Shown: positions 11,607-30,372, numbered from the stretch's first letter. The stretch is DNA of 64,000 nt from Candidatus Nomurabacteria bacterium (GCA_020632415.1 JACKFO010000002.1:711918-775917); one strand, 5' to 3'. Numbers and translations: made by a program. Notes: generated by a model not told the origin, from the letters alone.

Positions 11607-11608
11607 GT

Positions 11609-12973
11609 ATGAAAAGATTGCGTTTTTCTATTTTGATTATTTTGGCGATTTTTATAATCACCACTGGTTTTGGTTGTAAACAAAATATTATCAATCAAGC
11701 CCAGTTTGAACCGGTTGCTTTAGAATATTGGGGAGTTTGGGACACTCCGGAACAAATGCAAAAAATTATTGACGCTTATCAAGCTACTCACCCTACGATT
11801 AAAGTTAAATATCGCAATTTTCGTTATGATGAGTATGAACAAAAATTATTAGAAGCTGCTTGGGAAGATCGGGTACCGGATATTTTTATGATTCCGGCTA
11901 CTTGGCTCAAAAAATATCAAGACCGACTTTATCCAATGCCAGCGACAGTCAAGATTCCAGTCAAAGAAGTGCAAGGAACAATCAAACCAGAAGAGGTAAC
12001 AACCTTGAAGACTATCAATAGTTTAAGTAAGCAAGATGTCAAAGATCAATTTGTACAAGTTGTTTATGATGATGTGATTTTGGATGATCAGATTTACGGC
12101 CTGCCTTACTCAGTAGACACTTTAGTTACTTTTTATAATTTAGATTTATTAACTCAGAGTGGAATTCCTGAACCAATGGTAGATTTTCATGATTTAGTAG
12201 AGCATGTTCAGCAATATAAGTTATCAAAAATAGGGGCAGCTAATCAAGTTTTACAAGCAGGAGTTGCTTTGGGGACTGCTGATAATATTCCCCGTTTTTT
12301 CGATATTTTATCAAGCATCATGCTTCAAAATCAAGTCGAAGTTAAAGGAAAAAATTTCAGTCCACTACAAAGCAAAAGTTCAGCTACTAATTTAGCAGAA
12401 GTGTTTAATTTTTATACTGACTTTGCTGATCCGACCAAAGCAATTTATTCATGGAACGATGATCTGCCGAATGCCTTTGAAATGTTTACGCAAGGAAAGT
12501 TGGCTTATTTTTTTGGCTATAGTTATCATGCTGATGAATTACGCAAAAGAGGCGTTCAGTTTGATTGGGAGATTACTAATTTTCCAAAGACCAGAGGCTC
12601 AGAAGGAAGCGTCTATTATTCTAACTACTGGGTAAATGTAGTTCCGCAAAAATCAAAAAATAAGGATGCTGCTTGGAATTTTATTCAGAGCACAGTCAAT
12701 AAAAATATCGTGACAAATTATCTTAGTCCAAATAAAAAACCAACGGCCTTAAGATCTTTGATCAATGGCCAATTACAAGATGAAGATATTCGAATTTTCG
12801 CCTCACAAGTATTGACGGCTGATAATTGGTACGATGGTTATGATATTGATTTAGCTGAAAAATATACTGCGGATTTTATTAATTCTGTTTTAGCTGGAGA
12901 AATAGAAATAGACAATGAGGGTCTGGCATTTTTTGTCAGTCGAATCAATCAAACTTATAAAAAACAAGAATAA
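11609..12973 (+). CDS. ABC transporter extracellular solute-binding lipoprotein (family 1, sugar-type)
   Basis: Lipobox TTGFGC after the signal peptide; SBP-like length and composition. Confidence 0.55.
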   Translation: MKRLRFSILIILAIFIITTGFGCKQNIINQAQFEPVALEYWGVWDTPEQMQKIIDAYQATHPTIKVKYRNFRYDEYEQKLLEAAWEDRVPDIFMIPATWLKKYQDRLYPMPATVKIPVKEVQGTIKPEEVTTLKTINSLSKQDVKDQFVQVVYDDVILDDQIYGLPYSVDTLVTFYNLDLLTQSGIPEPMVDFHDLVEHVQQYKLSKIGAANQVLQAGVALGTADNIPRFFDILSSIMLQNQVEVKGKNFSPLQSKSSATNLAEVFNFYTDFADPTKAIYSWNDDLPNAFEMFTQGKLAYFFGYSYHADELRKRGVQFDWEITNFPKTRGSEGSVYYSNYWVNVVPQKSKNKDAAWNFIQSTVNKNIVTNYLSPNKKPTALRSLINGQLQDEDIRIFASQVLTADNWYDGYDIDLAEKYTADFINSVLAGEIEIDNEGLAFFVSRINQTYKKQE

Positions 12974-15668: not shown

Positions 15669-16280
15669 TCAGCGGAGCTCGACGTACCAGTCGACTGGCT
15701 TACCATTGAATTCCACCTTGTGACGATCGTCACGAATCGTCACCTTGGTGTAGTGGTTTTCTCCACGCGAAGTTTTCCAGTGAATGGTCATGGGGCCTGG
15801 GCTCAGGTAAAGCGCCTGACTAGCTTGACCGACTTCCAAGTGACCAACATTGCTGTAGCCACGGTAGGATACGATGTCAATTGGCTCTCGATAAGTATTG
15901 ATGAAGTAGCCTTCCAGTCGAGGCATGTTGTTTAGCAGGAAATCGTCTAGCTTAATTTCCTGAATTCCAGACCAGCGTCCGGTTCGCTGAATTGTGATCG
16001 CTTGTTCGTCTGAATATTGATCGATTTCGAGCCAGTACTTGACTCTCAGTCGAAGCTGGTCTTGGCGCGGCGTTTGAAAGCTGTGGCTTTGACCGGGCAG
16101 TAATTCAACGTAGGAGTTTCCCGAAGCTTCGGCCACGCTGAACATTACTCGCTCTCTGTCAGCTACGACTTTCCACTGACAAAACTCTTCGTTGTAATTC
16201 ATGCCACCATGGTAAGTGGCGCAGCCGGTCAGGAAGGCGACAAAGAGGATTGTCAGCCAGAGCAGTTTGTTGATCTTCAT
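15669..16280 (-). CDS. Hypothetical lipoprotein in a GC-rich island
   Basis: Signal peptide MKINKLLWLTILFVAFLTGC with lipobox. SD aggaaaag precedes the ATG at 16280. Local GC is about 50% against about 30% in the flanks. Confidence 0.55.
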   Translation of the reverse strand: MKINKLLWLTILFVAFLTGCATYHGGMNYNEEFCQWKVVADRERVMFSVAEASGNSYVELLPGQSHSFQTPRQDQLRLRVKYWLEIDQYSDEQAITIQRTGRWSGIQEIKLDDFLLNNMPRLEGYFINTYREPIDIVSYRGYSNVGHLEVGQASQALYLSPGPMTIHWKTSRGENHYTKVTIRDDRHKVEFNGKPVDWYVELR

Positions 16281-16392
16281 GGTCTTTTCCTTCTGCTTGT
16301 TTGATTGTCCAAGGTTCAAATCATTATATTATACTCTATTTTATCTATTTTGTCAATACACTTCGTCTTTTTGCATATGCTATAATTTAGCT

Positions 16393-18243
16393 ATGATTTT
16401 TTGGTCTAAAATGGGCTTATTTTTGGAAAAACACAGCAAGAAGCTATTAGTTCTGGCTATTGTCTTTTTTGCTCTATTTCTCGCCTTTTTGAGCCTCAGA
16501 AAGCTTGATTACTTTGCTTACAATGCCTTTGATTTGAGTATTTTTAATCAAGTTTTTTATAACACTCTGCATGGTCGTTGGTTTGAGATGACGATCAATC
16601 TTAATAGCTATTTAGCCGATCATTTTACACCAATCATTATTTTGTTTTTACCTTTTTATGCGCTGTGGCCCAAGGCCGAAGGATTGTTAATTTTGCAGTC
16701 TTTTATTTTAGCCTTTTCGGCTTGGCCGATTTACTTGATTAGCCGGCATGTTTTGGCTAACAAAAAAATTTCTTTTTTCATTGCCCTAGCTTGGCTATTC
16801 AATCCTTTTGTTCATAGCGCTCATTTTTATGAATTTCATCTATTGCCAATCGCAGTTTTATTTATTTTTTGGGCTTTTTATTTTTATCAAAAAGAAAAAT
16901 TTAAATATTTTATTTTATTTTTCATTTTAAGTTTATTAGTTAGAGAAGATGTTGCTTTGATTTTGTTAGGCTTCCCTTTTTTGGCTATTTTGGAACAGAG
17001 AAAAAAATTTTGGGTTATTCCAAGTTTGGTTTTGGCGCTATGTTATTTCTTTTTAAGTTTAAAAATTATTGGTCATTTTGATCCCAGCGGTTCTTATAAA
17101 TTTTTTATTTATTATTCTTGGCTAGGCGGACATAGTTTGGGCGAAATTATTTTTTCTTTTTTAATCCATCCTTTAAAAGTTTTACAACATATTTTTAGTT
17201 TGCAAAATATGTTTAATTTGGCAATAATTTTTTGGCCATTTTTATTTTTTCCATTTTTAAAACCAAAGTATTTTATCTTTTTTCTTTTACCATTGTTACA
17301 AATCATTATGACTGGTGGAGGATTTTCTTCAATGGTTTATCAGAGTCATTATATTTTATTTTTTTTACCTGGCTTATTTTTTGCTTTTATTTTTTCTTTT
17401 CAAAAAATCATTAAATTTAAGAATAAAAGTTTTATTTATTTACTCTTGTTTGTGACTGTAATTTATTTAGATTTATTTTTATCACCAGTTAAACAAGTTT
17501 TTCTTTATCCAAAACAGGAGAGCTTTATTACAGCAAAACAAGAAATGATCAAAACACTTGGCAGCGACAAAACATTGGCAGTGAGCGCTTCTTTTTTGCC
17601 GGCCTTAAGCACTAGAGAAAAAATTTACGCAGTTAATTATAGCTATTTTGCCAAAAGTCAGTTTGCTAAAAAAGATTTTATTTTACCAGATGTAGATTAT
17701 ATTTTGCTTGATTATAGCGACTTTATTGCTGATTTGCTAGAAAAGGAAACTAACAATCTTTTAGCTAGTCAAAGACCAAAGATGAATGATCGCTGGAAAG
17801 CCTTACTAGATAATTATCATTTAGAAAAAATAGATCATGATTTATTTTTATTCAGTAAAAAAACAGCAGAGGATCAAGAAAAATATCGGTTATTAGATTT
17901 CATTGAGCGTCCTGACAATCTACCAAATAAACTGATCTTAAATCAAGAATATATAGTAGATAAAGATGTTTTGAGCTTGGAGTTTAATCCTGATTTTTTT
18001 GCCGAAAATTATTTGATTCGTTTTTATGCTCAAGATTTTTTTTATGATTTACCGCTTGACTATGCTCTGATTTCCAAGGCTTTTCTAGACAAGCAGAAAG
18101 TGATTAAATTAAATTATTATCTCAGCTCAGAAATAAAAGCTTATCAGGTATTTTCTTGGAGCGGAGAAAACAAATTAGGATTGATTGGCGAGGTTGTTCC
18201 AGATTTGCAAATAAAAACTCTAAACGAAAAAATAAGCCTATGA
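16393..18243 (+). CDS. DUF2079-like polytopic membrane protein (putative envelope glycan-modifying enzyme)
   Basis: N-terminal motif AYNAFDLSIFNQVFYNT and many TM helices. TATAAT at 16381-16386 lies 6 nt before the ATG. The longer ORF from 16216 overlaps the convergent lipoprotein and was rejected. Confidence 0.5.
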   Translation: MIFWSKMGLFLEKHSKKLLVLAIVFFALFLAFLSLRKLDYFAYNAFDLSIFNQVFYNTLHGRWFEMTINLNSYLADHFTPIIILFLPFYALWPKAEGLLILQSFILAFSAWPIYLISRHVLANKKISFFIALAWLFNPFVHSAHFYEFHLLPIAVLFIFWAFYFYQKEKFKYFILFFILSLLVREDVALILLGFPFLAILEQRKKFWVIPSLVLALCYFFLSLKIIGHFDPSGSYKFFIYYSWLGGHSLGEIIFSFLIHPLKVLQHIFSLQNMFNLAIIFWPFLFFPFLKPKYFIFFLLPLLQIIMTGGGFSSMVYQSHYILFFLPGLFFAFIFSFQKIIKFKNKSFIYLLLFVTVIYLDLFLSPVKQVFLYPKQESFITAKQEMIKTLGSDKTLAVSASFLPALSTREKIYAVNYSYFAKSQFAKKDFILPDVDYILLDYSDFIADLLEKETNNLLASQRPKMNDRWKALLDNYHLEKIDHDLFLFSKKTAEDQEKYRLLDFIERPDNLPNKLILNQEYIVDKDVLSLEFNPDFFAENYLIRFYAQDFFYDLPLDYALISKAFLDKQKVIKLNYYLSSEIKAYQVFSWSGENKLGLIGEVVPDLQIKTLNEKISL

Positions 18244-19976
18244 CAAGTAATTTTAATTTTTTAAAAAAAGTTTTTGCAGCCAATATTTTTATTGTGTGTT
18301 TTTTTGGTTATTTAAGTCTTTATTTTTTGCTTTATCAGGGTAATTATTTTTTCTTTTTTGATCTTTTAAAAATAATCGCGATTTTATTTTTGTTTTTAGT
18401 GGGGGCCATCTTTGTCCCCCAAAGACACATCAAATATCTAGCCGCGCTATTAGCAGGGTTTTTTGTTTTAGATTTTGCTTTGCTTTTGTTTCATTTATTG
18501 CGACATGCATCTTTTAATTGGTTTTACTTTTGGTACAATCGACAAGAAGCTTGGCAGACCATTGATTTAGTTTTTCAGGGTGCGTGGTGGTATTTGTTGG
18601 CAGCTTTATTTTTTATTTTTACTTTTTTTTATTTTATTAAGCATTTGTTTGTGTTTTTTAAAAATAAGTTTAAGCTAAAGAGTGAAAAATATTTTTTTCT
18701 ATTTTTAGTGATACTGCTGCTGAGCCTTTCTTTTATCTCTACAAACAATCTTGAGCTGGTCAAAGTTATCAAGGAGGCATTTAGTAGTAATTCCGAGATT
18801 GTTAATCTGTATCAAGACTATTATCAAAAAATAATCAAAGATTATACTGTCAAGAATCAGAGAATTTTAGATAATTCAATCTTGAATTCGGAAGCTAATA
18901 TTTTTTTCTTGCATTTAGAAAGTTTAAATGGTGAATTTTTAAGTTCAGAAATTACGCCAAATTTTCAAGGGTTAGAAAACAAGGGCCTGGTTTTTAAAAA
19001 CATGCAGACCAACAATGTTCAGACAATTCGTGGTGAAGAAAATATCCTTTGCCCGGTTTTAGCCTCTATTGACCAAGACTTGCATCGCTCTGGCTTGAGC
19101 TCCCAGGCTCTTTGTTTGCCAAAAGTTTTAAAATCATTGGGCTACAAAACAATTTTTTTTAAAAGTCATGATTTATCTTTTGCGGACACCGGTGAATTTA
19201 TGAAAAACATCGGCTTTGATGAGGTTCATAGCTCAGATATCATGTCTCCAGAAGATCAAGAGTTGGCTTGGGGCTATCGAGAGGATCTTTTTTATCAAAG
19301 AGTTTTAGAGTATTTAAAGCAATATCAAGATCAAAAGATTTTTGCTTATATTGCTGTCAGCACCACTAATCACGTGCCTTTTGTTTTGGGTCAGAATTAT
19401 CAAGATTTAAATCTACAATTGCCATCCACTGGAGATAGTTTTTTGGCGCGTCTAAAAAATACTACTTTTGTTCAAGATTATTTTTTTGGAAACTTTTTAG
19501 AGCGATGGCAAGAAAAATATCAAAGCAATTCTCACCTTTTTGCTTTTGGTGATCAGGCTTGGCCAGTTGGCAAGCATGATAATTATTACAATGAAGCCTA
19601 TGCTTATCAAGAGAATTTTTTGTCCAGCTTGGCTGTGTTATCTCCAGAATTAAAAACTTTTGGCTTAAAAGAAAATTATCTTAGTCAAAATGATATTTTT
19701 CTTAGTATTTTGTCATTGCTTGGCCTAGATAGTTTTCAAAGTCCTGGCAAAAATATTTTTACTACAGATAATAAATGTATTATTGCTGTGCAGCCTTATT
19801 CGCGTCGTTATATCACGGCGATTAATTATCCAGAAAAATATATTTATAATATTTTAGATAATATTTTAGAAATTTATAATTTAGCAGATGATCCAGCAGA
19901 AAAAAATCCACTGTTTGTTGGAACAGCAGACGATTTGTCTTATTTAGAAAATTGTTTAGAAAATATCGCTAATTAA
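18240..19976 (+). CDS. LtaS/MdoB-like membrane-anchored sulfatase (alkaline phosphatase superfamily, phosphoglycerol-transferase-like)
   Basis: N-terminal TM helices plus a C-terminal sulfatase-like domain. Its start overlaps the upstream stop by 4 nt (ATGA), indicating translational coupling. Confidence 0.55.
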   Translation: MTSNFNFLKKVFAANIFIVCFFGYLSLYFLLYQGNYFFFFDLLKIIAILFLFLVGAIFVPQRHIKYLAALLAGFFVLDFALLLFHLLRHASFNWFYFWYNRQEAWQTIDLVFQGAWWYLLAALFFIFTFFYFIKHLFVFFKNKFKLKSEKYFFLFLVILLLSLSFISTNNLELVKVIKEAFSSNSEIVNLYQDYYQKIIKDYTVKNQRILDNSILNSEANIFFLHLESLNGEFLSSEITPNFQGLENKGLVFKNMQTNNVQTIRGEENILCPVLASIDQDLHRSGLSSQALCLPKVLKSLGYKTIFFKSHDLSFADTGEFMKNIGFDEVHSSDIMSPEDQELAWGYREDLFYQRVLEYLKQYQDQKIFAYIAVSTTNHVPFVLGQNYQDLNLQLPSTGDSFLARLKNTTFVQDYFFGNFLERWQEKYQSNSHLFAFGDQAWPVGKHDNYYNEAYAYQENFLSSLAVLSPELKTFGLKENYLSQNDIFLSILSLLGLDSFQSPGKNIFTTDNKCIIAVQPYSRRYITAINYPEKYIYNILDNILEIYNLADDPAEKNPLFVGTADDLSYLENCLENIAN

Positions 19977-21507
19977 TTTGATAAATTTCGACTTCCTGAT
20001 CTTCATAAACTAAAGAAATGTTTTGGTCAGCGACTAAAGCATTTTTTAATTCTTCTTTTTTATTTTCTTTTTCTAATAAAATATAATTACTATGAAATTT
20101 TTCTTTGATTGTCGTAGCCAAGTCATCGGTCTCTTGGCCAGAGCCCAAATCTAAATACAATTGATGTAGATCAAGGCTGTAATTATGCATAAAGGTTGGA
20201 TCCAGGCCAATGAGATAATAATTTTTTTGGTTGTGATAAAAAAGCATCGGCCACTGATCCCAGTCATCGTGAAAAACAATGCTTTGTTCTGGAGTATTAT
20301 TTTTAAGCCAAGCACTTGCAGCAGCAAATCTGTCGAAAGCTAGTCTTTGTGGCAGATTAAAAGTAAGCGCTTTGTTCAAAATCAAAGGGATGACCACGAT
20401 CAGCAAAATGCTCAAACTGATCGCAGTGTATGTTTTTAAATAAATATTTAATTTAAGCCAAAAATTTTTAATATTTTGGCGATTAAAAATACTTTTTAGA
20501 TCATTGGCGGCAAAGCTCACAAAAAGCAACAAGAAAGGTAAAAAATATTCAATATAACGACTAGATTTGATCGTTAATAACAAAAAACCAAAGCTTAACA
20601 AAAGACTAAAAGTTGTTTTTTGTGTTAATTTTTGGTAATTAAAGACCAATAAGATGATAAAAAGCCAACTTAAGATAAATAAATGTGGAGCAGAAGATAA
20701 GATTTTGAAAAAACTTGCCCCATACCATTCTCCGCCAACAGCAAACTGATTGCCAAGATTGATTAGTCCGATTTGGATCACTTGCTGCCAATAGAAATAA
20801 AGATTTTCTGGCCAATAAGGATGAGAAATTAGTCCAGCTAATATTCCTCCTAGGCTCCAGATTATTTTTTGCCAATGATAATGTATTTTGACTGAACTTA
20901 TTTTATTGTTGAGCCAAATACTGACAAAATAAGCCAAGAGGATTGGGAAAATAATTGGCCAGCCACCATAAAGCCAAACAAATAACCAGCTCAAAGCAAA
21001 GAGTAATTTATTTTTATTTTTTAAGAGAGCATAAATAAAAAATAAGCAAAGAATAAAGCTCAAAGAATTTGTTTTGATCAAGCTCCAGCGGAAGTTTAAA
21101 TTTGGCAGGGTCAGAATCAAGAGGCTAAAAAGCCAGGCAAAGGTTATGTTTAGTTTTTTTAGAAGCCAATAGAAGCTCAAAACTGCTAAAGTAGCAAATA
21201 AAACAGCAGCAATTTTGACGCCCCACAAAGGATCAGAAAATCTGACAAAAGGAATGAGAAAAATATGATACAAAAAGTGATGATCAGTAAAATTTTCAGC
21301 CAAAGTGCTGAATTGCATCCAAGGTAGTGCGTGTAAGATCTTTCCTTGGCCTAAAATTTGAGCTATTTTAGCATGATAAAAGCCATCAGGGTCACCGATG
21401 ACGGGATTTTTTTGCCAAAGCCAATAAAAGCTCAAAAAAATAAAAAACAAAGACCAGTAGTCAAATCGCCAGGCTTGAATTTTATTTTTTAGGGAGTCTG
21501 ATTTCAT
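19969..21507 (-). CDS. GT-C-like polytopic membrane glycosyltransferase candidate (ArnT/PMT-like)
   Basis: 512 aa, more than 10 TM helices, and a first-loop acidic motif GDPDGFYHAKIAQ. On the minus strand TGCTACAAT lies 9 nt upstream of the ATG. Confidence 0.4.
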   Translation of the reverse strand: MKSDSLKNKIQAWRFDYWSLFFIFLSFYWLWQKNPVIGDPDGFYHAKIAQILGQGKILHALPWMQFSTLAENFTDHHFLYHIFLIPFVRFSDPLWGVKIAAVLFATLAVLSFYWLLKKLNITFAWLFSLLILTLPNLNFRWSLIKTNSLSFILCLFFIYALLKNKNKLLFALSWLFVWLYGGWPIIFPILLAYFVSIWLNNKISSVKIHYHWQKIIWSLGGILAGLISHPYWPENLYFYWQQVIQIGLINLGNQFAVGGEWYGASFFKILSSAPHLFILSWLFIILLVFNYQKLTQKTTFSLLLSFGFLLLTIKSSRYIEYFLPFLLLFVSFAANDLKSIFNRQNIKNFWLKLNIYLKTYTAISLSILLIVVIPLILNKALTFNLPQRLAFDRFAAASAWLKNNTPEQSIVFHDDWDQWPMLFYHNQKNYYLIGLDPTFMHNYSLDLHQLYLDLGSGQETDDLATTIKEKFHSNYILLEKENKKEELKNALVADQNISLVYEDQEVEIYQIN

Positions 21508-21727: not shown

Positions 21728-22432
21728 ATGAGTGGACATTCCAAGTGGGCGACAACTAAACGAGCCAAAGAGGCCAAGGATTCAAAGCGGAGCAGTCTTT
21801 TTACCAAGCTTTCAAAAAACATTACCATCGCTGCTCGTGATGGGCAAGATCCAGATGCTAATTTTAAATTGAGAATGGCCGTTGATAAGGCCAAGGCTCT
21901 GAGTATGCCAAAAGATAATATCGAAAGAGCGATTAAGCGTGGCGGCGGAACTGGTGAGGGAGACAATATCGAAAGTCTGGTTTACGAAGCTTATGGACCA
22001 GAAGGCGTGGCGATTATCCTTGAGGTTTTGACTGATAATAAAAATCGAACCGTTGGCAATTTAAAACATGTTTTGAGTAAGGCCGGTGGAAATTTAGGTT
22101 CAAGCGGTAGTGTTTTGTGGATGTTTGAGATGAAAGGACAAATTATTTTAAAAAATTCTAGCCTTTCAGAAGAAGAGGAATTAAAAATTATCGAATCTGG
22201 TGCCGAAGACATTGTCCGAGATGAACAAATTCAAGTGCTTACCAATAAAGAAGACTTAGCGTTAGTCAGAGAAAATTTAGCTAAAAGTAATTTTGAAATT
22301 GAGGATTCGGACATCATTTATTTGGCCAAAGATAAAGTTTCAGTTAGCGATGAAGAAAAACTTTTACGCTTACTTGATGCCTTAGATGACGATGACGATG
22401 TAAACAATATTTATACTAACGCCGACATTTAA
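21728..22432 (+). CDS. yebC: YebC/PmpR family transcriptional regulator
   Basis: MSGHSKWATTKRAKEAKDSKRS...NIERAIKRG. Confidence 0.9.
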   Translation: MSGHSKWATTKRAKEAKDSKRSSLFTKLSKNITIAARDGQDPDANFKLRMAVDKAKALSMPKDNIERAIKRGGGTGEGDNIESLVYEAYGPEGVAIILEVLTDNKNRTVGNLKHVLSKAGGNLGSSGSVLWMFEMKGQIILKNSSLSEEEELKIIESGAEDIVRDEQIQVLTNKEDLALVRENLAKSNFEIEDSDIIYLAKDKVSVSDEEKLLRLLDALDDDDDVNNIYTNADI

Positions 22433-22935
22433 TGTCTAAACAAATTAAAAAACAAATTATTTTAGGCTTAGATCCAGGATTTGCTGATACCGGCTTTGGT
22501 GTTTTGGAAAAAAACGGCAATCAGCTGACTTTTTTGGAAGCAGGGAGCATCAAAACTAAGGCGAAGACTGATTTTAGTGAACGCTTGGAAATAATTTATC
22601 AAGAAATAAACAAACTAGTTCTTAAGTGGCAGCCAGATTTAGTGGCAATTGAGAAATTATATTTTGCTCGTAATGTGACCAATGCTCTAGACGTTGGTCA
22701 AGCTAGAGGAGTTGTCTTGTTGGCCTTGATTCAAAATCATTGTCAAATTTTGGAATTCACTCCTCTGCAAATTAAACAGGCTTTGACTGGCTCAGGAGCA
22801 GCTAGTAAACGTCAAGTTGGCCTGATGGTCAAGAGTTTATTGAAGATCAAAGAAGTGCCTAAACCAGATGACGCAGCTGACGCAGTTGCAACGGCAATTT
22901 GTGGCGCTTTTTTTAATAAGAGGTTATCATTATAG
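22432..22935 (+). CDS. ruvC: Crossover junction endodeoxyribonuclease RuvC
   Basis: IILGLDPGFADTGFGVL at the N-terminus; length is RuvC-like. Confidence 0.85.
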   Translation: MSKQIKKQIILGLDPGFADTGFGVLEKNGNQLTFLEAGSIKTKAKTDFSERLEIIYQEINKLVLKWQPDLVAIEKLYFARNVTNALDVGQARGVVLLALIQNHCQILEFTPLQIKQALTGSGAASKRQVGLMVKSLLKIKEVPKPDDAADAVATAICGAFFNKRLSL

Positions 22936-22955: not shown

Positions 22956-24443
22956 ATGAAATCTTTAAAAATTGTTTCCATTTCAGCAGAACTTGATCCT
23001 TTTTCTAAAACGGGTGGTCTAGCTGACGTCTCACGTTCTTTGGCTAGGAGTTTGCATCGTTTAGGACATGATATTATTGCGATTACGCCTTTGTATAGCA
23101 AAGTGATTGATCGTGATAAGTTTAAATTAAAAATAATTTATCGAGACGTTCAGTTAAATTTAGATAAAGAAAACACAGTTAAGGTTAGCTATTATCAGGG
23201 GGAGCTAATGCCTGGTTTGCCGGTTTATTTTGTTAGATGCGATAAATATTTTGGTCGTAAAAAATGGCCCTATGGATCGTCACGAGAAGGGGCGCGTTTT
23301 TATTTGTTTGACGTTGCTGCTTTAAAATTAATTTCTTTATTAAAATTTAAAGCGGACGTTATTCATTGTCATGATTGGCATACGGGCCTGATTCCTTATT
23401 TAAAGAAAAAACGTTTTTATCGTAGCAAAACCTTAGCTTCGGCTGCAACTGTATTTACTATCCATAATCTTACTTTTCAAGCAGGCATGAATTGGTGGGA
23501 AATACCAGTTAAATATCGAGATAAAGGTAAGGGTGTTTTGCCCTTATTTAAAGATGAAAAGATAAATTATATTAATTTTTCTAAAAGAGCCATTCTAAAC
23601 GCGGATGTTATTAATACAGTTTCCGAAACTTATGCCGATGAAATTATTAAGAAAAATTTTGGGCAAGATTTACATCGTATTTTAGTTAATCGCCGGCACA
23701 AACTTTTTGGAGTAGTCAATGGCATTGATTATAATGACTATAATCCAAGGACAGATCAGGGATTAAAAAAGAGATACTCGATTGAAACAATTCATCGTAA
23801 GATTGTCAACAAACGTCATTTGCAAAAAATGTTTAAATTACCCACTGATGATCGCATTCCAATCATTAGTTTTACTTCACGTATTGCTGAACAGAAAGGG
23901 TTTGATTTATTATTGGATATTTTACCTACGGTATTATTACGCGATGTTCAATTGATAATTATGGGTGATGGCGATAAGAATTTGATTGATAGAATTAACA
24001 AAATAAAAAAACTTTTTCCAGGAAAGATACATCAGTTTCCATTTTATGAAAATCGTAAAATGGAAACCCTACTTTATGCGGGTGGTGATTTGGTATTAGT
24101 CCCTTCTAGATTTGAGCCGTGTGGTATTACTCAAATGAAAGCTTTTCGTTATGGCTGTGTGCCGATCGTCAGATCAACAGGAGGCTTGTCTGATACGGTA
24201 GATAATTTCGATCCGGTAGATTATGATAATGGCAATGGCTTTACTTTTAAGAATTATAAATCACAAGAATTGTTAGTAGCAATTACTCGCGCTTTGGAAA
24301 CTTATAAATATAAAAATGTTTGGAAAGATTTAATGCGTCGAGGAATGCGCGCTTCTTTTTCTTGGGAGCTGCCAGCTAAAAAATATTTAGAATTATATAA
24401 AAAAGCCAAAAAATTTCAAAATGAAGAAAATAACTTGGATTAA
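22956..24443 (+). CDS. glgA: Glycogen/starch synthase-like GT5 glycosyltransferase
   Basis: KIVSISAELDPFSKTGGLADVSRSL (KxGGL motif) and a C-terminal GT-B fold. Confidence 0.75.
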   Translation: MKSLKIVSISAELDPFSKTGGLADVSRSLARSLHRLGHDIIAITPLYSKVIDRDKFKLKIIYRDVQLNLDKENTVKVSYYQGELMPGLPVYFVRCDKYFGRKKWPYGSSREGARFYLFDVAALKLISLLKFKADVIHCHDWHTGLIPYLKKKRFYRSKTLASAATVFTIHNLTFQAGMNWWEIPVKYRDKGKGVLPLFKDEKINYINFSKRAILNADVINTVSETYADEIIKKNFGQDLHRILVNRRHKLFGVVNGIDYNDYNPRTDQGLKKRYSIETIHRKIVNKRHLQKMFKLPTDDRIPIISFTSRIAEQKGFDLLLDILPTVLLRDVQLIIMGDGDKNLIDRINKIKKLFPGKIHQFPFYENRKMETLLYAGGDLVLVPSRFEPCGITQMKAFRYGCVPIVRSTGGLSDTVDNFDPVDYDNGNGFTFKNYKSQELLVAITRALETYKYKNVWKDLMRRGMRASFSWELPAKKYLELYKKAKKFQNEENNLD

Positions 24444-25578
24444 TTTTTTACATATTTATCAACCTCCTTGGCAAGAGCGAGGGATTATTGAACAAGCTGC
24501 TAATGAGAGCTATGAATATTTATTTCGTTTGTTCGAAAAACATAAAAAATTTAGAGCGACGATAAACATCAGCGGCTCTTTAGTTGATCAGTTAGCAGAA
24601 TTTCGTCCGGAGCTGTTAAAAAAATTACAAAATCTAGTCAAGAAAAACAAGCTTGAATTAACAGGTTCGGCTAAATATCACGCGCTCTTACCCCTTTTGT
24701 CTGTAAGTGAAATAAAAAGACAAATTATTTTAAATCAAGAGACTTTAAATAAATATTTTCCAGATGCTGAGATCAAAGGTTTTTATTTACCAGAAATGGC
24801 TTTTGCTCCTTTTTTAGGAAAAGTGATTAAAAACTTTGGCTATCAATATTTAATTGTTGATCCGATTATCTGTTCTGATAAAATAAACAATAAATTTAGT
24901 TATTTTTTAAAAGATTCTGGCTTGCAAATTATTTTTCGCAATCGAGAAATTTCAAAAGCTTATCCAGCGGAAATTATTTTTGAAAAATTAAAAGTAGCAG
25001 AAGACGAGAGAGAGCTCATTATCACTGGTACCGATGGTGAAATGTATGGCCATCGACATGAAGATTGGCAAGGACATTTGGAGCAGATTTTGCAAAATAA
25101 GAATTTGGAGGTTTTGCAAATTAGAGATTATTTAAGTTTATCAGAAGATAAAAAGATAATTAGTTTAAGTTCTGGTTCCTGGGAGAGTACTAAAAACGAA
25201 CTAAAAAAAGGCATTCCCTTTGCTTTGTGGAATGATCCTAAAAATGCAATCCATCAGTTTTTGTGGGATTTAGTCAATTTAAGCACGGAGCTGCTTACTA
25301 AGTATAAAAAAGATCCGAATTTTTATTGGGCTCGACAGCATTTGGATCGAGGTTTAGCTTCTTGTACTTTTTGGTGGGCCTCTGCCAAAAAACCGTCAGA
25401 TTTTTCTCCACTAACTTGGAATCCAGACATGATTGATAATGGTTCTGAGGAATTAGTGCGTAGCATTCGTTCTCTGAATCGCGCCTCAGTTCAAGAGAGG
25501 ATAAAAGCCGAACGTTTATACATTGAGATCAAAAAAAATACTTGGGAAAAACATTGGAAAAAATATCATAAACAATAA
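24421..25578 (+). CDS. Glycoside hydrolase family 57 protein (alpha-glucan branching / glucanotransferase-like)
   Basis: FLHIYQPPWQ (GH57 region I), LPEMAF (region III Glu nucleophile) and GTDGEMYGH (region IV Asp). Confidence 0.6.
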   Translation: MKKITWINFLHIYQPPWQERGIIEQAANESYEYLFRLFEKHKKFRATINISGSLVDQLAEFRPELLKKLQNLVKKNKLELTGSAKYHALLPLLSVSEIKRQIILNQETLNKYFPDAEIKGFYLPEMAFAPFLGKVIKNFGYQYLIVDPIICSDKINNKFSYFLKDSGLQIIFRNREISKAYPAEIIFEKLKVAEDERELIITGTDGEMYGHRHEDWQGHLEQILQNKNLEVLQIRDYLSLSEDKKIISLSSGSWESTKNELKKGIPFALWNDPKNAIHQFLWDLVNLSTELLTKYKKDPNFYWARQHLDRGLASCTFWWASAKKPSDFSPLTWNPDMIDNGSEELVRSIRSLNRASVQERIKAERLYIEIKKNTWEKHWKKYHKQ

Positions 25579-25582
25579 AATC

Positions 25583-26656
25583 ATGAATTCAAGATCAATT
25601 TTAGATGACAAAATAAAAGAACAAGTCGCTCAAGTGGCTAATCATGATTTTGTCAGAGAAATTTTGGACGCTAATTTAAACAAATATTATCCAGACTTTC
25701 AAAAAATAGAAGAATTGACACTTAAGGCCTACAAGAAACACATTGGTAAGACTAGTGCAGTTTTTGTAATTGGTTATAAAATAAAATATTTAAATACTGA
25801 TAACAAGATTGGTAAATTAGAGCTATTTGCCACAGCTCATTCTGATGACTCACGAAAAGCTGCTTTTGAGAAATTAAATTTTTTGTATCAAAATGGTTTT
25901 AATCAAGGAAAATTTCAAGTTACTCGACCATTATTTTTTTTGAGCGAGCAAAAAGGATTTTTTTATGAATCATCAGTTGGCCGTAGTTTGTTTAGTTTTT
26001 TTAAAGAAGATAGTTTTGTTGATTTGGGAAATGCTTTGGACTTAGCTGCTGGTTGGGTTAGAGAATTGCATTCTTTGAAGGACAAAAGTACATTTTCTTG
26101 GCCAAAATTTTCAGTGAGCAACATGATTCCTTCGCCACAGCAATTTTTACCAGACTTTATTGAGCATGATCAGCTTTTGGGCTCAAAAATAAAGAGAATA
26201 GTTTCTCAAATTCAAAATTGGGAAAAAGAATTAAAGAAAACTTTTCAAGAGACTTTAATTTATGGTGACTATCATCCAGAAAATATAATCATTACCGATT
26301 TGCAGGCCCAGAACTTAAAAATGATTGATTTTACAGATGTGGCCTTAGGTGATCCAATGACAGATTTAGGTACTTTTTTGCAGCAATTTGATTTCATGGG
26401 GCATCGTTTTTTCTCAAGAGAAAAAATAAATCAAGATAAAGAATATTTTTTTAATAGTTATTTTCAAAAAAGTTTGTCAGAAGTAGAAGAAAATTATTTT
26501 CAAAGAATAAATCTTTATCAAGCCTGGACAGCTTTGCGTACTGCGGTATTCTTATTTTATATGCATCGAGATGATTCAGTAAAAGAGTTGTTAAGAGAAG
26601 TTGAAAGTTATATTCTCTTGATAGACAATAAAGAAAAAAGAATTAACATACACTAG
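25583..26656 (+). CDS. APH/choline-kinase-fold putative sugar kinase
   Basis: Catalytic-loop motif GDYHPENIIITD (HGDxxxxN). The start was reassigned to the ATG at 25583, after the upstream stop. Confidence 0.5.
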   Translation: MNSRSILDDKIKEQVAQVANHDFVREILDANLNKYYPDFQKIEELTLKAYKKHIGKTSAVFVIGYKIKYLNTDNKIGKLELFATAHSDDSRKAAFEKLNFLYQNGFNQGKFQVTRPLFFLSEQKGFFYESSVGRSLFSFFKEDSFVDLGNALDLAAGWVRELHSLKDKSTFSWPKFSVSNMIPSPQQFLPDFIEHDQLLGSKIKRIVSQIQNWEKELKKTFQETLIYGDYHPENIIITDLQAQNLKMIDFTDVALGDPMTDLGTFLQQFDFMGHRFFSREKINQDKEYFFNSYFQKSLSEVEENYFQRINLYQAWTALRTAVFLFYMHRDDSVKELLREVESYILLIDNKEKRINIH

Positions 26657-26659
26657 TTT

Positions 26660-27232
26660 ATGAAAGCTCATAAAATTATTTTTGAAGGAGCAGAGTTAAC
26701 GGGTAAAAGTTGGTTGATGAGCCAGGTTTATGATTTTTTGGAACCAAAATATAATAGTGGCGGAAAAATTTTGGATGGCTGTCATTGGTTTAACTGCGAT
26801 GTTGGAATTTTTGGAACAAAGTATGGCAAAGTGGCAATAGAAAAATATTTGGAATTAGCAGAATCTTTGCCAAAATCAAATGTTATGTTAGAGAAATTTC
26901 ATTTGAGCGAAGCTGTTTATCAAAAATTGTATAATCAAAAAAATTTTAATTTTATAAAAATTGAAAAACGCTTAAAAAAACTTGGTGCCAAAATAGTCTT
27001 GGTCACTTTTCCAGAGGATAAAAAATTGATCAGCAAAAGAATTGAAGATCGCCTCCGGCTTTATCCTCATTATTCTCGAATCGTCCAAAAACCCGAAGAT
27101 TATATTAAACAACAAAGACTATTTATTAGCTTGTTAAAGAAAAGTAAACTAGAAAATATTATTATTGAAACAGAGCATTTGCCTGATGAAAAAAAAGTTC
27201 AAGAGATCCTGGACTTCTTAGAAGAAAAATAA
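26660..27232 (+). CDS. P-loop nucleoside/nucleotide kinase-like protein
   Basis: Walker A GAELTGKS; 190 aa. Confidence 0.45.
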   Translation: MKAHKIIFEGAELTGKSWLMSQVYDFLEPKYNSGGKILDGCHWFNCDVGIFGTKYGKVAIEKYLELAESLPKSNVMLEKFHLSEAVYQKLYNQKNFNFIKIEKRLKKLGAKIVLVTFPEDKKLISKRIEDRLRLYPHYSRIVQKPEDYIKQQRLFISLLKKSKLENIIIETEHLPDEKKVQEILDFLEEK

Positions 27233-27303
27233 AAACGCTCTCGATAAAAAGGGTGTTTTTTGTTATAATGATTCTATATTTTATAATAAAATAACAAATA
27301 AAA

Positions 27304-28779
27304 ATGATAAATAAAATGAAAGTTTTGTTCGTTGGCGCAGAACTTGCTCCCTTAGTTAAAGTGGGCGGGTTAGGAGACGTGATGGGTTCTTTGCCAAAAG
27401 CCTTGATAAGAAATAAAGTAGATTTGAAAATAATTATTCCTTTTTATGGAGCGATAGATAAGAAAAAATTTTTAATAAAATTATTTAAGAAAAATATAAA
27501 ATTAGAAATTGATCAGCAGAAATTAAATTTTGATCTCTACCAAACATATCTACCAGGAAGCAAGATTAAGGTTTTTTTAATAAAGCACAAATTATTTGAT
27601 CATAAAGAAATTTATGTAGGGCACCGTAAATATTTAAAGGGCAGGGTTTATTCTCGTTCCCTTGGCGACATTGAACGTTTTGTCTTTTTTTCCAAGGCTG
27701 TTGTCGAAACAATCAAACAATTAAATTGGCAATTAGACATTGTTCATTGTCATGATTGGCACACAGCTTTGATCCCAACCTTGATTGATGAATATAGTTT
27801 AGAAGATCAGAATTTTAAAAATATTAAAACTGTTTTTACCATTCACAATTTAGCTAATCAAGGAGTGGCTCCTTTAGACATTGTTGACTATGGAGGTTTA
27901 CACCATGATCTGACGCCTGCTTTGATGGAAGATTATTATGATCGCGATGGTGATAAGATTGACATGATGAAAGTTGGTATTTTGTCAGCAGATTTAGTTA
28001 ACACTGTTAGCCCAAATTATGCCAAAGAGATTTTAAGCAAAGAATACGGAGAAAAATTAGAAGCATATTTATTAAGGCGTAAGAAACATTTGTTTGGGAT
28101 TGTTAATGGCATTGATCTGGATTTTTTTAATCCTCAAAAAGATCAGTTGATTTACAAAAAATATAATTTAAAAAATTATAAAAGTGGCAAGCTAGCCAAT
28201 AAGCAAGCTTTGCAGAAAGAATTAAAATTACCGCTTGTTGACGTTCCTGTTTTTGGCTTGGTTTCTCGCTTGGTCAGACAAAAAGGATTAGACATTTTGA
28301 TTCCGACTCTCCAGAAGCTATTACACAAAACAGAAATGCAGATAATTATTTTAGGAACCGGCCAAGAAGAATACGAGGATGACTTCAAAGCTTTAGAAAA
28401 AAAATATCCAAGCAAAGTAAAAGCAAAAATTACTTTTGATATTAAATTAGCCCAAAAAATTTATGCTGCTTCCGATTTCTTTTTAATGCCTTCTAGTTTT
28501 GAGCCTTGCGGTTTAGGACAAATGATTGCGATGCGTTATGGAAGTTTGCCGATCGTTAGGGCAACCGGGGGCTTAAAAGACACGGTCAAGCATAAAAAAA
28601 CAGGCTTAGTATTCAAAAATTATAAAGCCTCAGAATTACACAAGGTGTTTTTACAAGCTTTAAAGCTTTATCGTCATAAATCAGCTTTTGATGTTATAAT
28701 AAAAGCAGCGATGAAAGAAGATTTTTCTTGGGCTAAATCGGCAGCAGATTATATAAAATTATATAAAAAATTGATTTAA
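27304..28779 (+). CDS. glgA: Glycogen/starch synthase-like GT5 glycosyltransferase (second copy)
   Basis: MKVLFVGAELAPLVKVGGLGDVMGSLPKAL. Confidence 0.75.
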   Translation: MINKMKVLFVGAELAPLVKVGGLGDVMGSLPKALIRNKVDLKIIIPFYGAIDKKKFLIKLFKKNIKLEIDQQKLNFDLYQTYLPGSKIKVFLIKHKLFDHKEIYVGHRKYLKGRVYSRSLGDIERFVFFSKAVVETIKQLNWQLDIVHCHDWHTALIPTLIDEYSLEDQNFKNIKTVFTIHNLANQGVAPLDIVDYGGLHHDLTPALMEDYYDRDGDKIDMMKVGILSADLVNTVSPNYAKEILSKEYGEKLEAYLLRRKKHLFGIVNGIDLDFFNPQKDQLIYKKYNLKNYKSGKLANKQALQKELKLPLVDVPVFGLVSRLVRQKGLDILIPTLQKLLHKTEMQIIILGTGQEEYEDDFKALEKKYPSKVKAKITFDIKLAQKIYAASDFFLMPSSFEPCGLGQMIAMRYGSLPIVRATGGLKDTVKHKKTGLVFKNYKASELHKVFLQALKLYRHKSAFDVIIKAAMKEDFSWAKSAADYIKLYKKLI

Positions 28780-28782
28780 ATT

Positions 28783-29718
28783 ATGTCTAAAAAAATACAA
28801 TCAGAAATTCGCAAAGACTATATTCAGGAAAAATACGTCATTATTGCCCCTAAGCGTGGTAAGCGACCACATGACACTATCAAGCCCAAGCAATATCATA
28901 AACCATTAGAGACTTGTGTTTTTTGTCCAGATAATTTAAAAAATACCAAAAGTTTGTACCAACAAGGAAAAGGGAATAACTGGAATATTAAAATAATTGC
29001 CAATAAATTTCCAGCTGTTTCTTTGGATAATCCCAAGGCCTACGGACAACAAGAAGTAGTAGTGGAAACTCCAGATCACACGAAAGAATTAGAGGATTTG
29101 TCAGTGACACACATTGCTAATTTATTAACTGCTTATCAAGAACGAACCAAGGCAATCTCTAAAAATAAAAAAATCGAATATATCTTGATTTTTAAAAATG
29201 ACGGCGGTGTTGCTGGCGCTAGTTTGCAACATTCTCACTCTCAGATTTTTGCTACTCAATTTTTACCACCGCATCTTTTTGATAAATCACAGCGTCAGCA
29301 AGCCTATAAATTAGAGCATGGTAATTGTGTTTATTGTGACGTGATCGCTAAAGAATCAAAAAACAAACGTTTGGTTTACAAAGATAAACATATTATTGCT
29401 TTTACACCTTATGCTTCAACTTTTAATTATGAGATTTGGATCATGCCCTTAAAGCACCGTGATAATATTACCGAGCTCACTGCCCCAGAAAAGACAGCCT
29501 GGGCAAAAATATTGAAACACATTCTTACGAAGATTAGCTTATTAGATTTACCGTATAATTTTTATTTTCATCAAGTAATCAATGACAATGACCAGCATTT
29601 ATACATGAAGGTTGTGCCTCGTGGTTCAGTTTGGGCCGGTGTTGAAATCGGATCTGGTTTGATTATTAATCCTATTTTACCAGAAGATGCAGCTGAGTTT
29701 TATCGTCAAGGTTTGTAG
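28783..29718 (+). CDS. GalT-like HIT-superfamily hexose-1-phosphate (or NDP-sugar) uridylyl/nucleotidyltransferase
   Basis: Zn-site CVFCPDN and active-site LQHSHSQIF (HxHxQ). Confidence 0.6.
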   Translation: MSKKIQSEIRKDYIQEKYVIIAPKRGKRPHDTIKPKQYHKPLETCVFCPDNLKNTKSLYQQGKGNNWNIKIIANKFPAVSLDNPKAYGQQEVVVETPDHTKELEDLSVTHIANLLTAYQERTKAISKNKKIEYILIFKNDGGVAGASLQHSHSQIFATQFLPPHLFDKSQRQQAYKLEHGNCVYCDVIAKESKNKRLVYKDKHIIAFTPYASTFNYEIWIMPLKHRDNITELTAPEKTAWAKILKHILTKISLLDLPYNFYFHQVINDNDQHLYMKVVPRGSVWAGVEIGSGLIINPILPEDAAEFYRQGL

Positions 29719-29736: not shown

Positions 29737-30372
29737 ATGTTTAAAAAAATTGCATTTTATAACGCATTTGCACTCATAAATTTTATACTTTATGTGATTT
29801 ATTTTTCTGCTGGTTACAAAGGGCAAGCTTTAGAAATTTATTCTTATGTTGCGTTGGCAATTGGCGCTGTGTCTCTAGGCATCATATTTATTTTGGCTAG
29901 AAATTTTAGTCTGCTATCTTTTAAAAAAAAGATTTTATTAATAATATTTAATATATTAGCATATTTTCCTTTTATGTTTTTTGTATCTCATGTGTATGAC
30001 AGGATTGTCGGCCTAGAATCAATGACTTCAGATGAATCTGGCTTTGCTCTGCTTAGTACTTATTTTATAATAACAATGATCGCAGGAGCAACAACGGCTC
30101 TTTTTAATATTATTAGCATTATGAGAAACGATCAAATTAAATTTTTAACCGTTGTTGTTTTAGTAGTAATACCCATTGTGTTTGCGGCGTTGTATTATGG
30201 GTATGCGTATTTAGCAAGCGTTATTTTTAGTCAACAATATACTGCTTCTGCCTTTTTTATGATATTTTGTGTACCATTTATATCTGGAATTATCTTTGGA
30301 TTTATCGCTAGCTTTGTTTTAACTTGGTGTATATCACTATTAGTTAAGCTCGGAAGATATGTAGCTAAATAA
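29737..30372 (+). CDS. Hypothetical polytopic membrane protein
   Basis: ORF with 5-6 predicted TM helices. Confidence 0.4.
   Translation: MFKKIAFYNAFALINFILYVIYFSAGYKGQALEIYSYVALAIGAVSLGIIFILARNFSLLSFKKKILLIIFNILAYFPFMFFVSHVYDRIVGLESMTSDESGFALLSTYFIITMIAGATTALFNIISIMRNDQIKFLTVVVLVVIPIVFAALYYGYAYLASVIFSQQYTASAFFMIFCVPFISGIIFGFIASFVLTWCISLLVKLGRYVAK

Follow-up and report, generated by a model that had tools for sequence, protein, structure and literature searches.

How might a bacterium build and recover an alpha-glucan where its glycogen synthases are flanked by enzymes other than the classical ones? The question arises in the Patescibacteria, a group that accounts for a large share of bacterial diversity, has tiny genomes and remains poorly understood in how it stores and recovers carbon. 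Here, we consider a window of 64,000 nt (the whole stretch of DNA analysed, ~64 kb out of an 842,326-bp contig) from a Candidatus Nomurabacteria bacterium (GCA_020632415.1, JACKFO010000002.1:711918-775917), in which six genes occupy positions 22956-29718. We conclude that they form an operon for a glycogen-like polymer that is conserved across the Patescibacteria, and the combination of synthases, a kinase and a relative of ADP-glucose phosphorylase suggests that this polymer may be made or broken down without the classical enzymes. The reading that we favour, with a probability of roughly one half, is that of a native two-module operon for an intracellular alpha-1,4-glucan resembling glycogen or amylose, found throughout the Patescibacteria. 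Module A, which is nearly universal, would comprise the synthase GT5a, a GH57 enzyme and an APH-fold kinase, while module B would comprise a second synthase, GT5b, and a HIT-superfamily enzyme, translationally coupled and perhaps expressed from their own promoter.

The cluster and its surroundings

The six genes are all on the + strand, in the order GT5a, GH57, APH-fold kinase, P-loop kinase, GT5b and HIT, with intergenic distances from 5' to 3' of -23, +4, +3, +71 and +3 nt; an ORF check found each of them in place, and the co-directional, tightly packed arrangement described in the original prediction is correct. Catalytic motifs are intact in all six proteins. As the GC content of the cluster is that of its surroundings, it is not an island. 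Immediately upstream on the same strand (21728..22935) are yebC (21728-22432) and ruvC (22432-22935), identified by the Pfam assignments of their counterparts in related loci; being kept upstream neighbours, they are best regarded as synteny with no functional role in the pathway.

The predicted pathway resembles the classical GlgC-GlgA-GlgB/GlgP-GlgX system in using a GlgA-type GT5 enzyme with every canonical motif to act on a cytoplasmic alpha-1,4-glucan, but it differs in lacking GlgC, a GH13 GlgB, GlgP and GlgX in the cluster and window, and in having instead a compact GH57 enzyme, two kinases, a HIT enzyme and two anciently diverged GlgA paralogues. The reported absence of glgC, glgB and glgP stands for the ~64-kb window, which has no gene for GlgC, a GH13 branching enzyme or a GT35 phosphorylase and in which every ORF of at least 300 aa had another function or matched no family. 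It counts against the two-module reading that classical glgC, glgB and glgP genes may be encoded in other parts of the 842-kb genome, and that the galU-like gene, which is indeed present at 10746 as predicted, could provide UDP-glucose in the conventional way.

Two synthases and a compact GH57 enzyme

The first gene (22956..24443, + strand) encodes GT5a, a GlgA-type glycogen/starch synthase of 495 aa that matches PF08323 (200 bits, Pfam) and TIGR02095 glgA (465 bits against a cut-off of 328, NCBIfam), while the fifth (27304..28779, + strand) encodes GT5b, a second GlgA-type synthase of 491 aa that reaches 526 bits against the same NCBIfam cut-off of 328. Among solved structures, GT5a is closest to Arabidopsis SS4 (1e-69) and to E. 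coli GlgA (5e-68), and GT5b to SS4 (3e-71), to rice GBSS and to E. coli GlgA. The donor-binding and catalytic motifs KxGGL, HDWH, SRxxxQKG (with its R/K pair) and EPCG (with the catalytic Glu) are retained in both, as KTGGL (nt 23007-23021), HDWH (23370-23381), SRIAEQKG (23877-23900) and EPCG (24114-24125) in GT5a and as KVGGL (nt 27358-27372), HDWH (27751-27762), SRLVRQKG (28264-28287) and EPCG (28501-28512) in GT5b, so that the donor-binding residues on which the original prediction depended are in place. Judged by profile and motif, both proteins are canonical GlgA-type synthases. They share 36% identity and fall into separate, consistent orthogroups across loci; they are paralogues of ancient divergence, and the description of two divergent GT5 genes was accurate. 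Since both exceed the cut-off of TIGR02095, a family named 'ADP-glucose type', ADP-glucose is a plausible shared metabolite, the family name by itself being no evidence for ADP-glucose over UDP-glucose as the donor. Upstream of GT5b, two overlapping sigma-70-like matches (27241..27287, + strand), each agreeing at 10/12 positions and one with an extended -10 TG, sit in the 71-nt gap that is the sole sizeable intergenic space of the cluster. In an AT-rich region with 49 such matches observed against 35.5 expected, they may at most hint at a promoter inside the operon from which GT5b and HIT would be expressed.

The compact GH57 enzyme (24421..25578, + strand; 385 aa; PF03065, 108 bits, Pfam), whose gene shares its first 23 nt with the end of GT5a, has all five conserved regions of its family: HIYQP (aa 11-15), KLELTG, LPEMAF (aa 123-128), GTDGE (aa 203-207) and SCTFWW (aa 314-319). 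The nucleophile Glu125 (LPEMAF, region III; nt 24793-24795) and the acid/base Asp205 (GTDGE, region IV; nt 25033-25035), both said to be intact, do not vary among 20 homologues and line up with the catalytic pair of 1k1w. This Thermococcus-type structure, the T. litoralis 4-alpha-glucanotransferase, is the best match of the family profile (2.5e-20), and the alignment runs contiguously over the nucleophile and acid/base regions with a similar Glu-to-Asp spacing (91 aa in 1K1W, 80 aa here); unlike the 659-aa 1K1W, however, the cluster protein has 385 aa and is without a C-terminal beta-sandwich domain. Of the features that define the T. litoralis type, namely a (beta/alpha)7 catalytic domain, that beta-sandwich and disproportionating activity, the catalytic domain is the part that matches best. 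A GH57 branching enzyme consists of three domains in at least 418 aa, with a DUF1957 C-domain and with a flexible loop and a beta5-beta6 insertion between regions III and IV, and most of its so-called branching-enzyme homologues are without these features and could act in other pathways (PMC9291813). We rejected that assignment here: the protein is short, has no DUF1957 match in Pfam and neither loop nor insertion within the 80 aa between Glu and Asp, and branching enzymes align with its profile in fragments only. The predicted role in remodelling thus appears sound for an enzyme with an intact catalytic pair and not of the branching type. Across the 80 loci examined, every homologue in its subfamily comes from a Patescibacteria-type genome.

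Two kinases and a HIT-family nucleotidyltransferase

The ORF of the third gene opens at 25523, and translation probably begins at the ATG at 25583; the resulting kinase (25583..26656, + strand; PF01636, 49 bits, Pfam) has 357 aa, as does the database protein P0001. It combines the bilobal APH/eukaryotic-like kinase fold with an ATP-binding Lys (Lys51), the D-x-x-x-x-N catalytic loop (GDYHPEN, nt 26264-26284) and a DFG-like metal-binding Asp (IDFTD, nt 26324-26338); the active site is intact and the fold is that of a small-molecule kinase. Identification as NahK or as maltokinase (Mak/Pep2) was considered and found no support, the protein having no specific affinity to either. Maltokinase acts next to TreS and is often fused to it. 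The cluster is like TreS-Mak (Pep2) of the GlgE pathway in that a retaining alpha-glucan-active enzyme adjoins, and is sometimes fused to, an APH-fold kinase, but the enzyme is a GH57 rather than a GH13 protein, the sequence of the kinase falls outside the maltokinase family, and neither the window nor any of 88 fetched loci yielded a GlgE; no GH13 gene turned up in the window or the loci examined either. In-frame GH57-kinase fusions occur in two clades (65% and 52% identity within clades, 36-39% between them), a recurrence that points to a new kinase specificity, and a kinase-PHP fusion also exists among the relatives.

The P-loop kinase (26660..27232, + strand; 190 aa) has a thymidylate-kinase/deoxynucleoside-kinase-like fold and the features of thymidylate and NMP kinases, namely a Walker A motif (GAELTGKS, nt 26687-26710), an Arg-bearing lid (R127, D130, R131) and the NMP-kinase fold, and its family has an invariant motif of its own, DGCHWFNCD (nt 26774-26800). 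It has no Pfam or NCBIfam match, and assignment to the thymidylate kinases of PF02223 was discarded on that ground and because EKFH stands where D-R-[YFH] is expected after strand 3.

The last gene (28783..29718, + strand) starts 3 nt past the GT5b stop and encodes a class I GalT-family nucleotidyltransferase of the HIT superfamily. This 311-aa protein, at 1.80 bits per residue the most conserved of the cluster, matches PF01087 (65 bits) and PF02744 in Pfam and TIGR00209 galT (112.7 bits against a cut-off of 102.1), and contains the H-x-H-x-Q nucleophile motif (HSHSQ, aa 150-154, nt 29230-29244), a structural Zn site (CVFC, aa 45-48, nt 28915-28926) and two HIT-like half domains. Its closest PDB match is Arabidopsis At5g18200 (1z84/2h39), aligned over the full length (E 7e-47, 163 bits) and sharing the HSHSQ motif, the Zn-binding CxxC and N-x-[FY]-P, followed by the GalT of P. 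aerophilum (125 bits) and that of E. coli (1e-22, 83 bits). In the literature, At5g18200 is an ADP-glucose phosphorylase. The original identification as a GalT gives way to this closer relationship, and we propose from the homology that the cluster enzyme is an NDP-glucose (ADP-glucose) phosphorylase, although it speaks against the two-module reading that the protein passes the galT cut-off and has a confirmed archaeal GalT as its second-best relative. No physiological role or operon context is known for the plant enzyme, whereas the cluster enzyme is translationally coupled to a glycogen synthase.

Two modules and the alternatives

Relatives of the kinase were found in at least 260 species-representative genomes, and 80 related loci were examined, with neighbours counted at 72 loci upstream and 52 downstream. 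The order GT5a-GH57-kinase, downstream of yebC-ruvC, is nearly invariant in the 80 loci: GT5a precedes the kinase in 71/72, GH57 in 68/72 and ruvC in 68/72. Downstream, GT5b is present in 40/52 loci and HIT in 23/52, and in 22 of the 23 loci with HIT it directly follows GT5b; in one locus (L086), a GT5b-type gene and HIT stand alone as a pair. HIT and the P-loop gene are absent from many loci that retain module A and are therefore not obligatory. The kinase follows the occurrence of GH57 rather than that of HIT, and kinase and HIT each occur without the other. Among accessory genes of related loci, GDE/GH100-like, GH15 and ROK glucokinase genes are glucan-related, and PGM lies nearby. A PHP phosphatase gene is found right after the kinase in 20/52 loci, and this frequent neighbour, like the kinase-PHP fusion, is unexplained by simple sugar phosphorylation and counts against the two-module reading. 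The predicted alpha-glucan cluster is genuine and self-consistent.

The substrates and the direction of flux in the two-module reading are ones that we infer from gene order, families, catalytic residues, conservation, co-occurrence and fusions. In module A, GT5a would extend alpha-1,4 chains from NDP-glucose; GH57, as a retaining transglycosylase or hydrolase like the catalytic domain of 4-alpha-glucanotransferase, would cut or disproportionate them; and the APH kinase, beside GH57 as maltokinase is beside TreS, would phosphorylate a small sugar released or used by GH57, be it glucose, maltose or a malto-oligosaccharide. In module B, HIT would interconvert NDP-glucose + Pi and Glc-1-P + NDP via a covalent enzyme-NMP intermediate, so that with GT5b it would tie Glc-1-P to the polymer without GlgC, PPi release or net ATP cost. 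The overall reaction, glucan(n) + Glc-1-P <-> glucan(n+1) + Pi, has the stoichiometry of glycogen phosphorylase, and GT5b-HIT could thus run towards synthesis or phosphorolytic mobilisation depending on the levels of Pi and Glc-1-P. The thymidylate-kinase-like P-loop protein would be an accessory kinase, perhaps converting NMP to NDP. A bolder and tentative proposal, which we think doubtful as a whole, is that of a third, so far undescribed bacterial storage alpha-glucan route in the Patescibacteria, in which a GlgA paralogue and HIT form a reversible GlgC- and GlgP-free link to Glc-1-P with ADP acting catalytically, and a GH57-kinase couple (sometimes fused, sometimes with PHP) feeds phosphosugar back or phosphorylates an unbranched glucan for mobilisation.

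Other readings of the locus have to be weighed against these. It might be an ordinary glycogen locus, with both GT5s plain GlgA copies served by GlgC or GalU, GlgB and GlgP encoded elsewhere, and the kinases and HIT mere syntenic bystanders. The canonical GT5s, the conserved synteny of the block with the unrelated yebC, ruvC, tyrS and PBP, and the extent of the inspection (64 kb of the genome) are all compatible with this, but bystanders would not be expected to give in-frame fusions of the kinase to GH57 and to PHP, genes that overlap or lie 3-4 nt apart, a module A kept while its flanks vary, a HIT gene that moves with a GT5b-type gene in another context, or insertions into the block that in other genomes are glucan enzymes, and we consider it rather unlikely. 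A salvage route of the NahK/GalT kind, in which the APH kinase makes a hexose-1-phosphate that HIT swaps onto UDP from the UDP-glucose of GalU before the GT5s polymerise and GH57 remodels, is unlikely too. It draws on the bifidobacterial GNB/LNB pathway, which pairs an APH-fold anomeric kinase (NahK) with a HIT-family hexose-1-phosphate nucleotidyltransferase (a class II GalT) in the literature, on the TIGR00209 score and the galU-like gene of the window, and on the 21/21 close-group loci in which kinase and HIT share one operon. Unlike in GNB/LNB, the HIT here is class I and ADP-glucose-phosphorylase-like, there is no phosphorylase or epimerase, and kinase and HIT are not co-inherited; the link between an anomeric kinase and a uridylyltransferase in the original prediction finds no support on the same ground, the kinase going with GT5a and GH57, and being fused to GH57 in two clades, while HIT is present in 23/52 loci.

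Two further schemes change the role of the kinase. Reversible phosphorylation of the glucan itself is improbable: the APH kinase, perhaps together with the P-loop kinase, would phosphorylate the polymer, GH57 would degrade the loosened chains and PHP would dephosphorylate them, a cycle likened to that of plant glucan dikinases, phosphoglucan phosphatases and amylases, and needed because a polymer made with no branching enzyme would be poorly soluble. Pairwise fusions do join kinase, glucan hydrolase and phosphatase, PHP lies directly 3' of the kinase where it occurs, and GH57 is without branching features, with no GH13 branching enzyme in the window or examined loci; that absence covers these loci and not the genome, however, all the proteins lack a carbohydrate-binding module, PHP most resembles nucleotide 3'-phosphatases, and the window has no PHP gene. 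No APH-fold enzyme is known to phosphorylate polysaccharides, which also counts against the scheme. Most improbable of all is that the product is something other than storage glycogen, either a glucosylated small molecule or an alpha-glucan of a modified envelope or polymethylated type, for which the kinase would make a phosphorylated acceptor, GT5 would glucosylate it and a phosphatase would act last (as in OtsA/OtsB and GpgS/GpgP), with GH57 as in the mycobacterial methylglucose-lipopolysaccharide locus. Methyltransferase (6/52), GT4, pyruvyl transferase and PHP phosphatase genes in related loci would fit, as would the other pathways open to non-branching GH57 homologues (PMC9291813), but the GT5s score as full-length GlgA-type polymerases, the accessory GH15, GDE-like and ROK genes point to breakdown of glucan to glucose, and the modifying genes are absent from the window.

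The cluster belongs to the conserved metabolic operons of the Patescibacteria, and in it textbook glycogen synthases are joined with three enzymes outside any described alpha-glucan pathway. We know of no role found for plant ADP-glucose phosphorylase since 2006. If HIT truly interconverts ADP-glucose and Glc-1-P beside a synthase, glycogen could be made or phosphorolysed in these organisms without ADP-glucose pyrophosphorylase or glycogen phosphorylase and with less ATP, and the plant enzyme would gain a testable function and its first physiological context.

Layout and conservation of the gene cluster

The six co-directional forward-strand genes at 22956-29718 lie exactly where the original prediction placed them and are accurately described by it. 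On the basis of Pfam and NCBIfam searches, they encode, in order, a GlgA-type synthase, GT5a (22956-24443; PF08323, and TIGR02095 'glgA' at 465 bits against a cut-off of 328), a GH57 enzyme (24421-25578; PF03065, 108 bits), an APH-fold kinase (25583-26656; PF01636), a 190-aa P-loop protein with a Walker A motif (26660-27232), a second synthase, GT5b (27304-28779; TIGR02095, 526 bits), and a GalT-family nucleotidyltransferase, the HIT enzyme (28783-29718; PF01087 and PF02744, and TIGR00209 at 112.7 bits against a cut-off of 102.1). The kinase reading frame is listed from 25523, and the ATG at 25583 gives 357 aa, the length of an identical database protein (P0001). Successive genes are joined at distances of -23, +4, +3, +71 and +3 nt, the expected active-site motifs are present in all six proteins, and the GC content of the cluster is that of its flanks. 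The reported lack of classical glycogen genes holds within the window, which covers less than 8% of this Candidatus Nomurabacteria (Patescibacteria) genome and has no GlgC, GH13 enzyme or GT35 phosphorylase among its ORFs of at least 300 aa.

A promoter and terminator scan of the window gave matches that barely exceed background in this AT-rich DNA, and the operon boundaries of the cluster are thus drawn from gene spacing. Only one of the spaces between the genes is of any size (71 nt, 27233-27303), and it holds TGTTATAAT and TATAAT elements which, in a scan so close to the AT-rich background, suggest a possible internal promoter of GT5b and the HIT gene. A membrane ORF at 29737-30372 was not counted in the cluster, as it has no homologue among the related loci. 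Elsewhere in the window, a small protein (3392-4060, forward strand) oddly combines a RodZ-like HTH_25 domain and a module resembling glucodextranase domain B (PF09136, 35 bits). A series of genes for large membrane proteins just 5' of yebC (16216-21507) encodes one protein with DUF2079 (675 aa), one of the sulfatase family (606 aa) and a polytopic one without a family (512 aa); a DUF2079 gene and large unassigned membrane genes again lie upstream of yebC in two related loci (L001 and L003).

The kinase family does not occur sporadically: at least 260 species-representative genomes have confirmed relatives, and of 1.84 billion cluster representatives searched, 147 clusters matched at E ≤ 1e-30. 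ORFs were called in all 80 loci fetched around kinase homologues and then matched to the window proteins, with upstream neighbours counted in the 72 loci having at least 3 kb 5' of the kinase and downstream neighbours in the 52 having at least 5.5 kb 3' of it. These data divide the cluster into two modules, one of GT5a, GH57 and the kinase, the other of GT5b and the HIT enzyme. Upstream of the kinase, GT5a is found in 71/72 loci, GH57 in 68/72 and ruvC in 68/72, and ten loci have the GT5a-GH57-kinase core alone. Downstream, GT5b occurs in 40 of the 52 loci, the HIT gene in 23 and the P-loop gene in 17, with rarer genes for a methyltransferase (six loci), a GDE/GH100-like enzyme (three) and a ROK kinase (three). 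GT5b immediately precedes the HIT gene in 22 of the 23 loci bearing the latter, and one locus (L086) pairs a GT5b-type gene with a HIT gene in the absence of both GH57 and kinase.

Named lineages with related loci include Komeilibacteria, Falkowbacteria, Parcubacteria and Paceibacterota. The cluster is also carried by numerous MAG records under the title 'uncultured Gammaproteobacteria bacterium' (L006, L013, L015, L017, L025-L027 and many more), which have Patescibacteria-type synteny and kinases up to 66% identical to that of the Nomurabacteria; these titles look like generic mislabels. In some loci a GH15 glucoamylase-like, ROK glucokinase or GDE/GH100-like gene is inserted in the block (L087, 534-1607 and 10002-10901; L012, L021 and L023; L019, 11716-12879), suggesting that these lineages break the glucan down to glucose.

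The synthases, the GH57 enzyme and the HIT protein

GT5a and GT5b share 36% identity, both contain the KxGGL, HDWH, SRxxxQKG and EPCG motifs, and the best solved relatives of both are plant SS4 and E. coli GlgA rather than the archaeal type. They form two consistent orthogroups across the loci, and the duplication is thus old. The GH57 motifs that had been read from the sequence are present in the window protein, as are all five conserved regions of the family, and Glu125 and Asp205 are invariant among homologues. A profile of its family matches the Thermococcus litoralis 4-alpha-glucanotransferase in one unbroken alignment across the catalytic domain (2.5e-20), while GH57 branching enzymes match that profile only piecewise. 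Active GH57 branching enzymes are defined by a C-domain and loop/beta5-beta6 elements (PMC9291813); the cluster protein, at 385 aa, with no DUF1957 and with 80 residues between nucleophile and acid/base, is without these, and its architecture rules out a branching enzyme.

Of the proteins in the cluster, the HIT enzyme shows the strongest conservation (1.80 bits per residue, against 1.06 for the kinase), and it has at least 120 homologues, all of them, among the matches listed, from close Patescibacteria relatives. Its alignment with Arabidopsis At5g18200, with which it shares an HSHSQ motif, spans the whole protein (7e-47, 163 bits) and ranks ahead of those with Pyrobaculum aerophilum GalT (125 bits) and E. 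coli GalT (83 bits). The Arabidopsis protein is an ADP-glucose phosphorylase with no known role in the physiology of the plant, and catalysis by HIT/GalT enzymes runs via a covalent enzyme-NMP intermediate.

Other genes may bear on the supply of NDP-glucose. A galU-like nucleotidyltransferase gene (TIGR01099 at 276 bits, under the cut-off of 326.8, with glgC models at only about 40 bits) is directly followed by one for a sugar-type ABC solute-binding protein (10746-12973, forward strand), and three related loci (L006, L008 and L065) have GalU-like genes no more than 10 kb 5' of the cluster. The window also encodes a membrane H+-translocating pyrophosphatase (49113-51146, reverse strand; PF03030, 888 bits), a predicted function through which the organism can conserve the energy of PPi, a point relevant to whether a PPi-releasing (GlgC or GalU) or a PPi-free route to NDP-glucose is the advantageous one.

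The kinase and its partners

In one related locus (L067, 8834-11032), a single 732-aa protein joins GH57 (residues 2-385) to the kinase (391-726), and neither a stop nor a start codon intervenes. A 745-aa fusion (L087, 3105-5342) lies in a different context, ordered yebC-ruvC-GH15-GT5a-[GH57-kinase]-GT4-GT4-...-HIT-ROK, and two more are found among the cluster representatives (P0350 and P0389). The four form two clades, with identities of 65% and 52% within and 36-39% between them, a divergence that rules out an assembly artefact.

The P-loop protein, for which Pfam, NCBIfam and PDB sequence searches gave no match, is placed by fold search alone in the thymidylate-kinase/deoxynucleoside-kinase-like group. 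A DGCHWFNCD motif (26774-26800; residues 39-47) is near-invariant in 29 homologues: seven of its residues never vary, while D39 and H42 are kept in at least 90%. The motif occupies the position of the nucleotide-substrate binding site of thymidylate kinases and, with two Cys and a single His, may form a metal site or an unusual site for the substrate.

Every substrate assignment in the cluster is inferred. The closest known precedent for such a fusion, of an APH-fold kinase with an enzyme from a glycoside-hydrolase family, is TreS-maltokinase, and by this analogy we favour a kinase that would act on a small sugar handled by GH57. This reading does not account for the TrpH-like PHP phosphatase (about 288 aa) encoded immediately 3' of the kinase or P-loop gene in 20/52 loci (for example L033, 3108-3974, L041 and L013), nor for a kinase-PHP fusion (P0489), and these keep alive two alternatives: a cycle of glucan phosphorylation and dephosphorylation, and a scheme in which a phosphorylated acceptor passes to a transferase and then to the phosphatase. 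The best NCBIfam match of the PHP protein is a 3',5'-nucleoside bisphosphate phosphatase (147 bits, under cut-off), and its gene is absent from the window.

A proposed route to alpha-glucan

The synthases and the GH57 family are already known; what is new is the kinase family with its fusion to GH57, the P-loop protein, and the pairing of a synthase with a HIT enzyme. Full-text searches found no description of the cluster, and the literature gave passing mentions only of glycogen genes in CPR/Patescibacteria and of bacterial ADP-glucose phosphorylase; the accessible part of a comprehensive review from 2024 on the alpha-glucan enzymes of prokaryotes mentions neither Patescibacteria nor HIT-family enzymes.

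The original prediction had the kinase feed a uridylyltransferase to activate the sugar, a step contradicted by the co-occurrence pattern, the fusions and the affinities of the HIT protein. The pairing of GT5b with the HIT enzyme is best accounted for by NDP-glucose as a metabolite common to both. Acting as a phosphorylase, the latter would swap one phosphoanhydride for another and should, we infer, be readily reversible. Together with the synthase, which would allow the NDP to be recycled, the net reaction would be glucan(n) + Glc-1-P <-> glucan(n+1) + Pi, and neither GlgC nor GlgP would be needed. The self-contained, non-classical route put forward in the original prediction is a reasonable idea.
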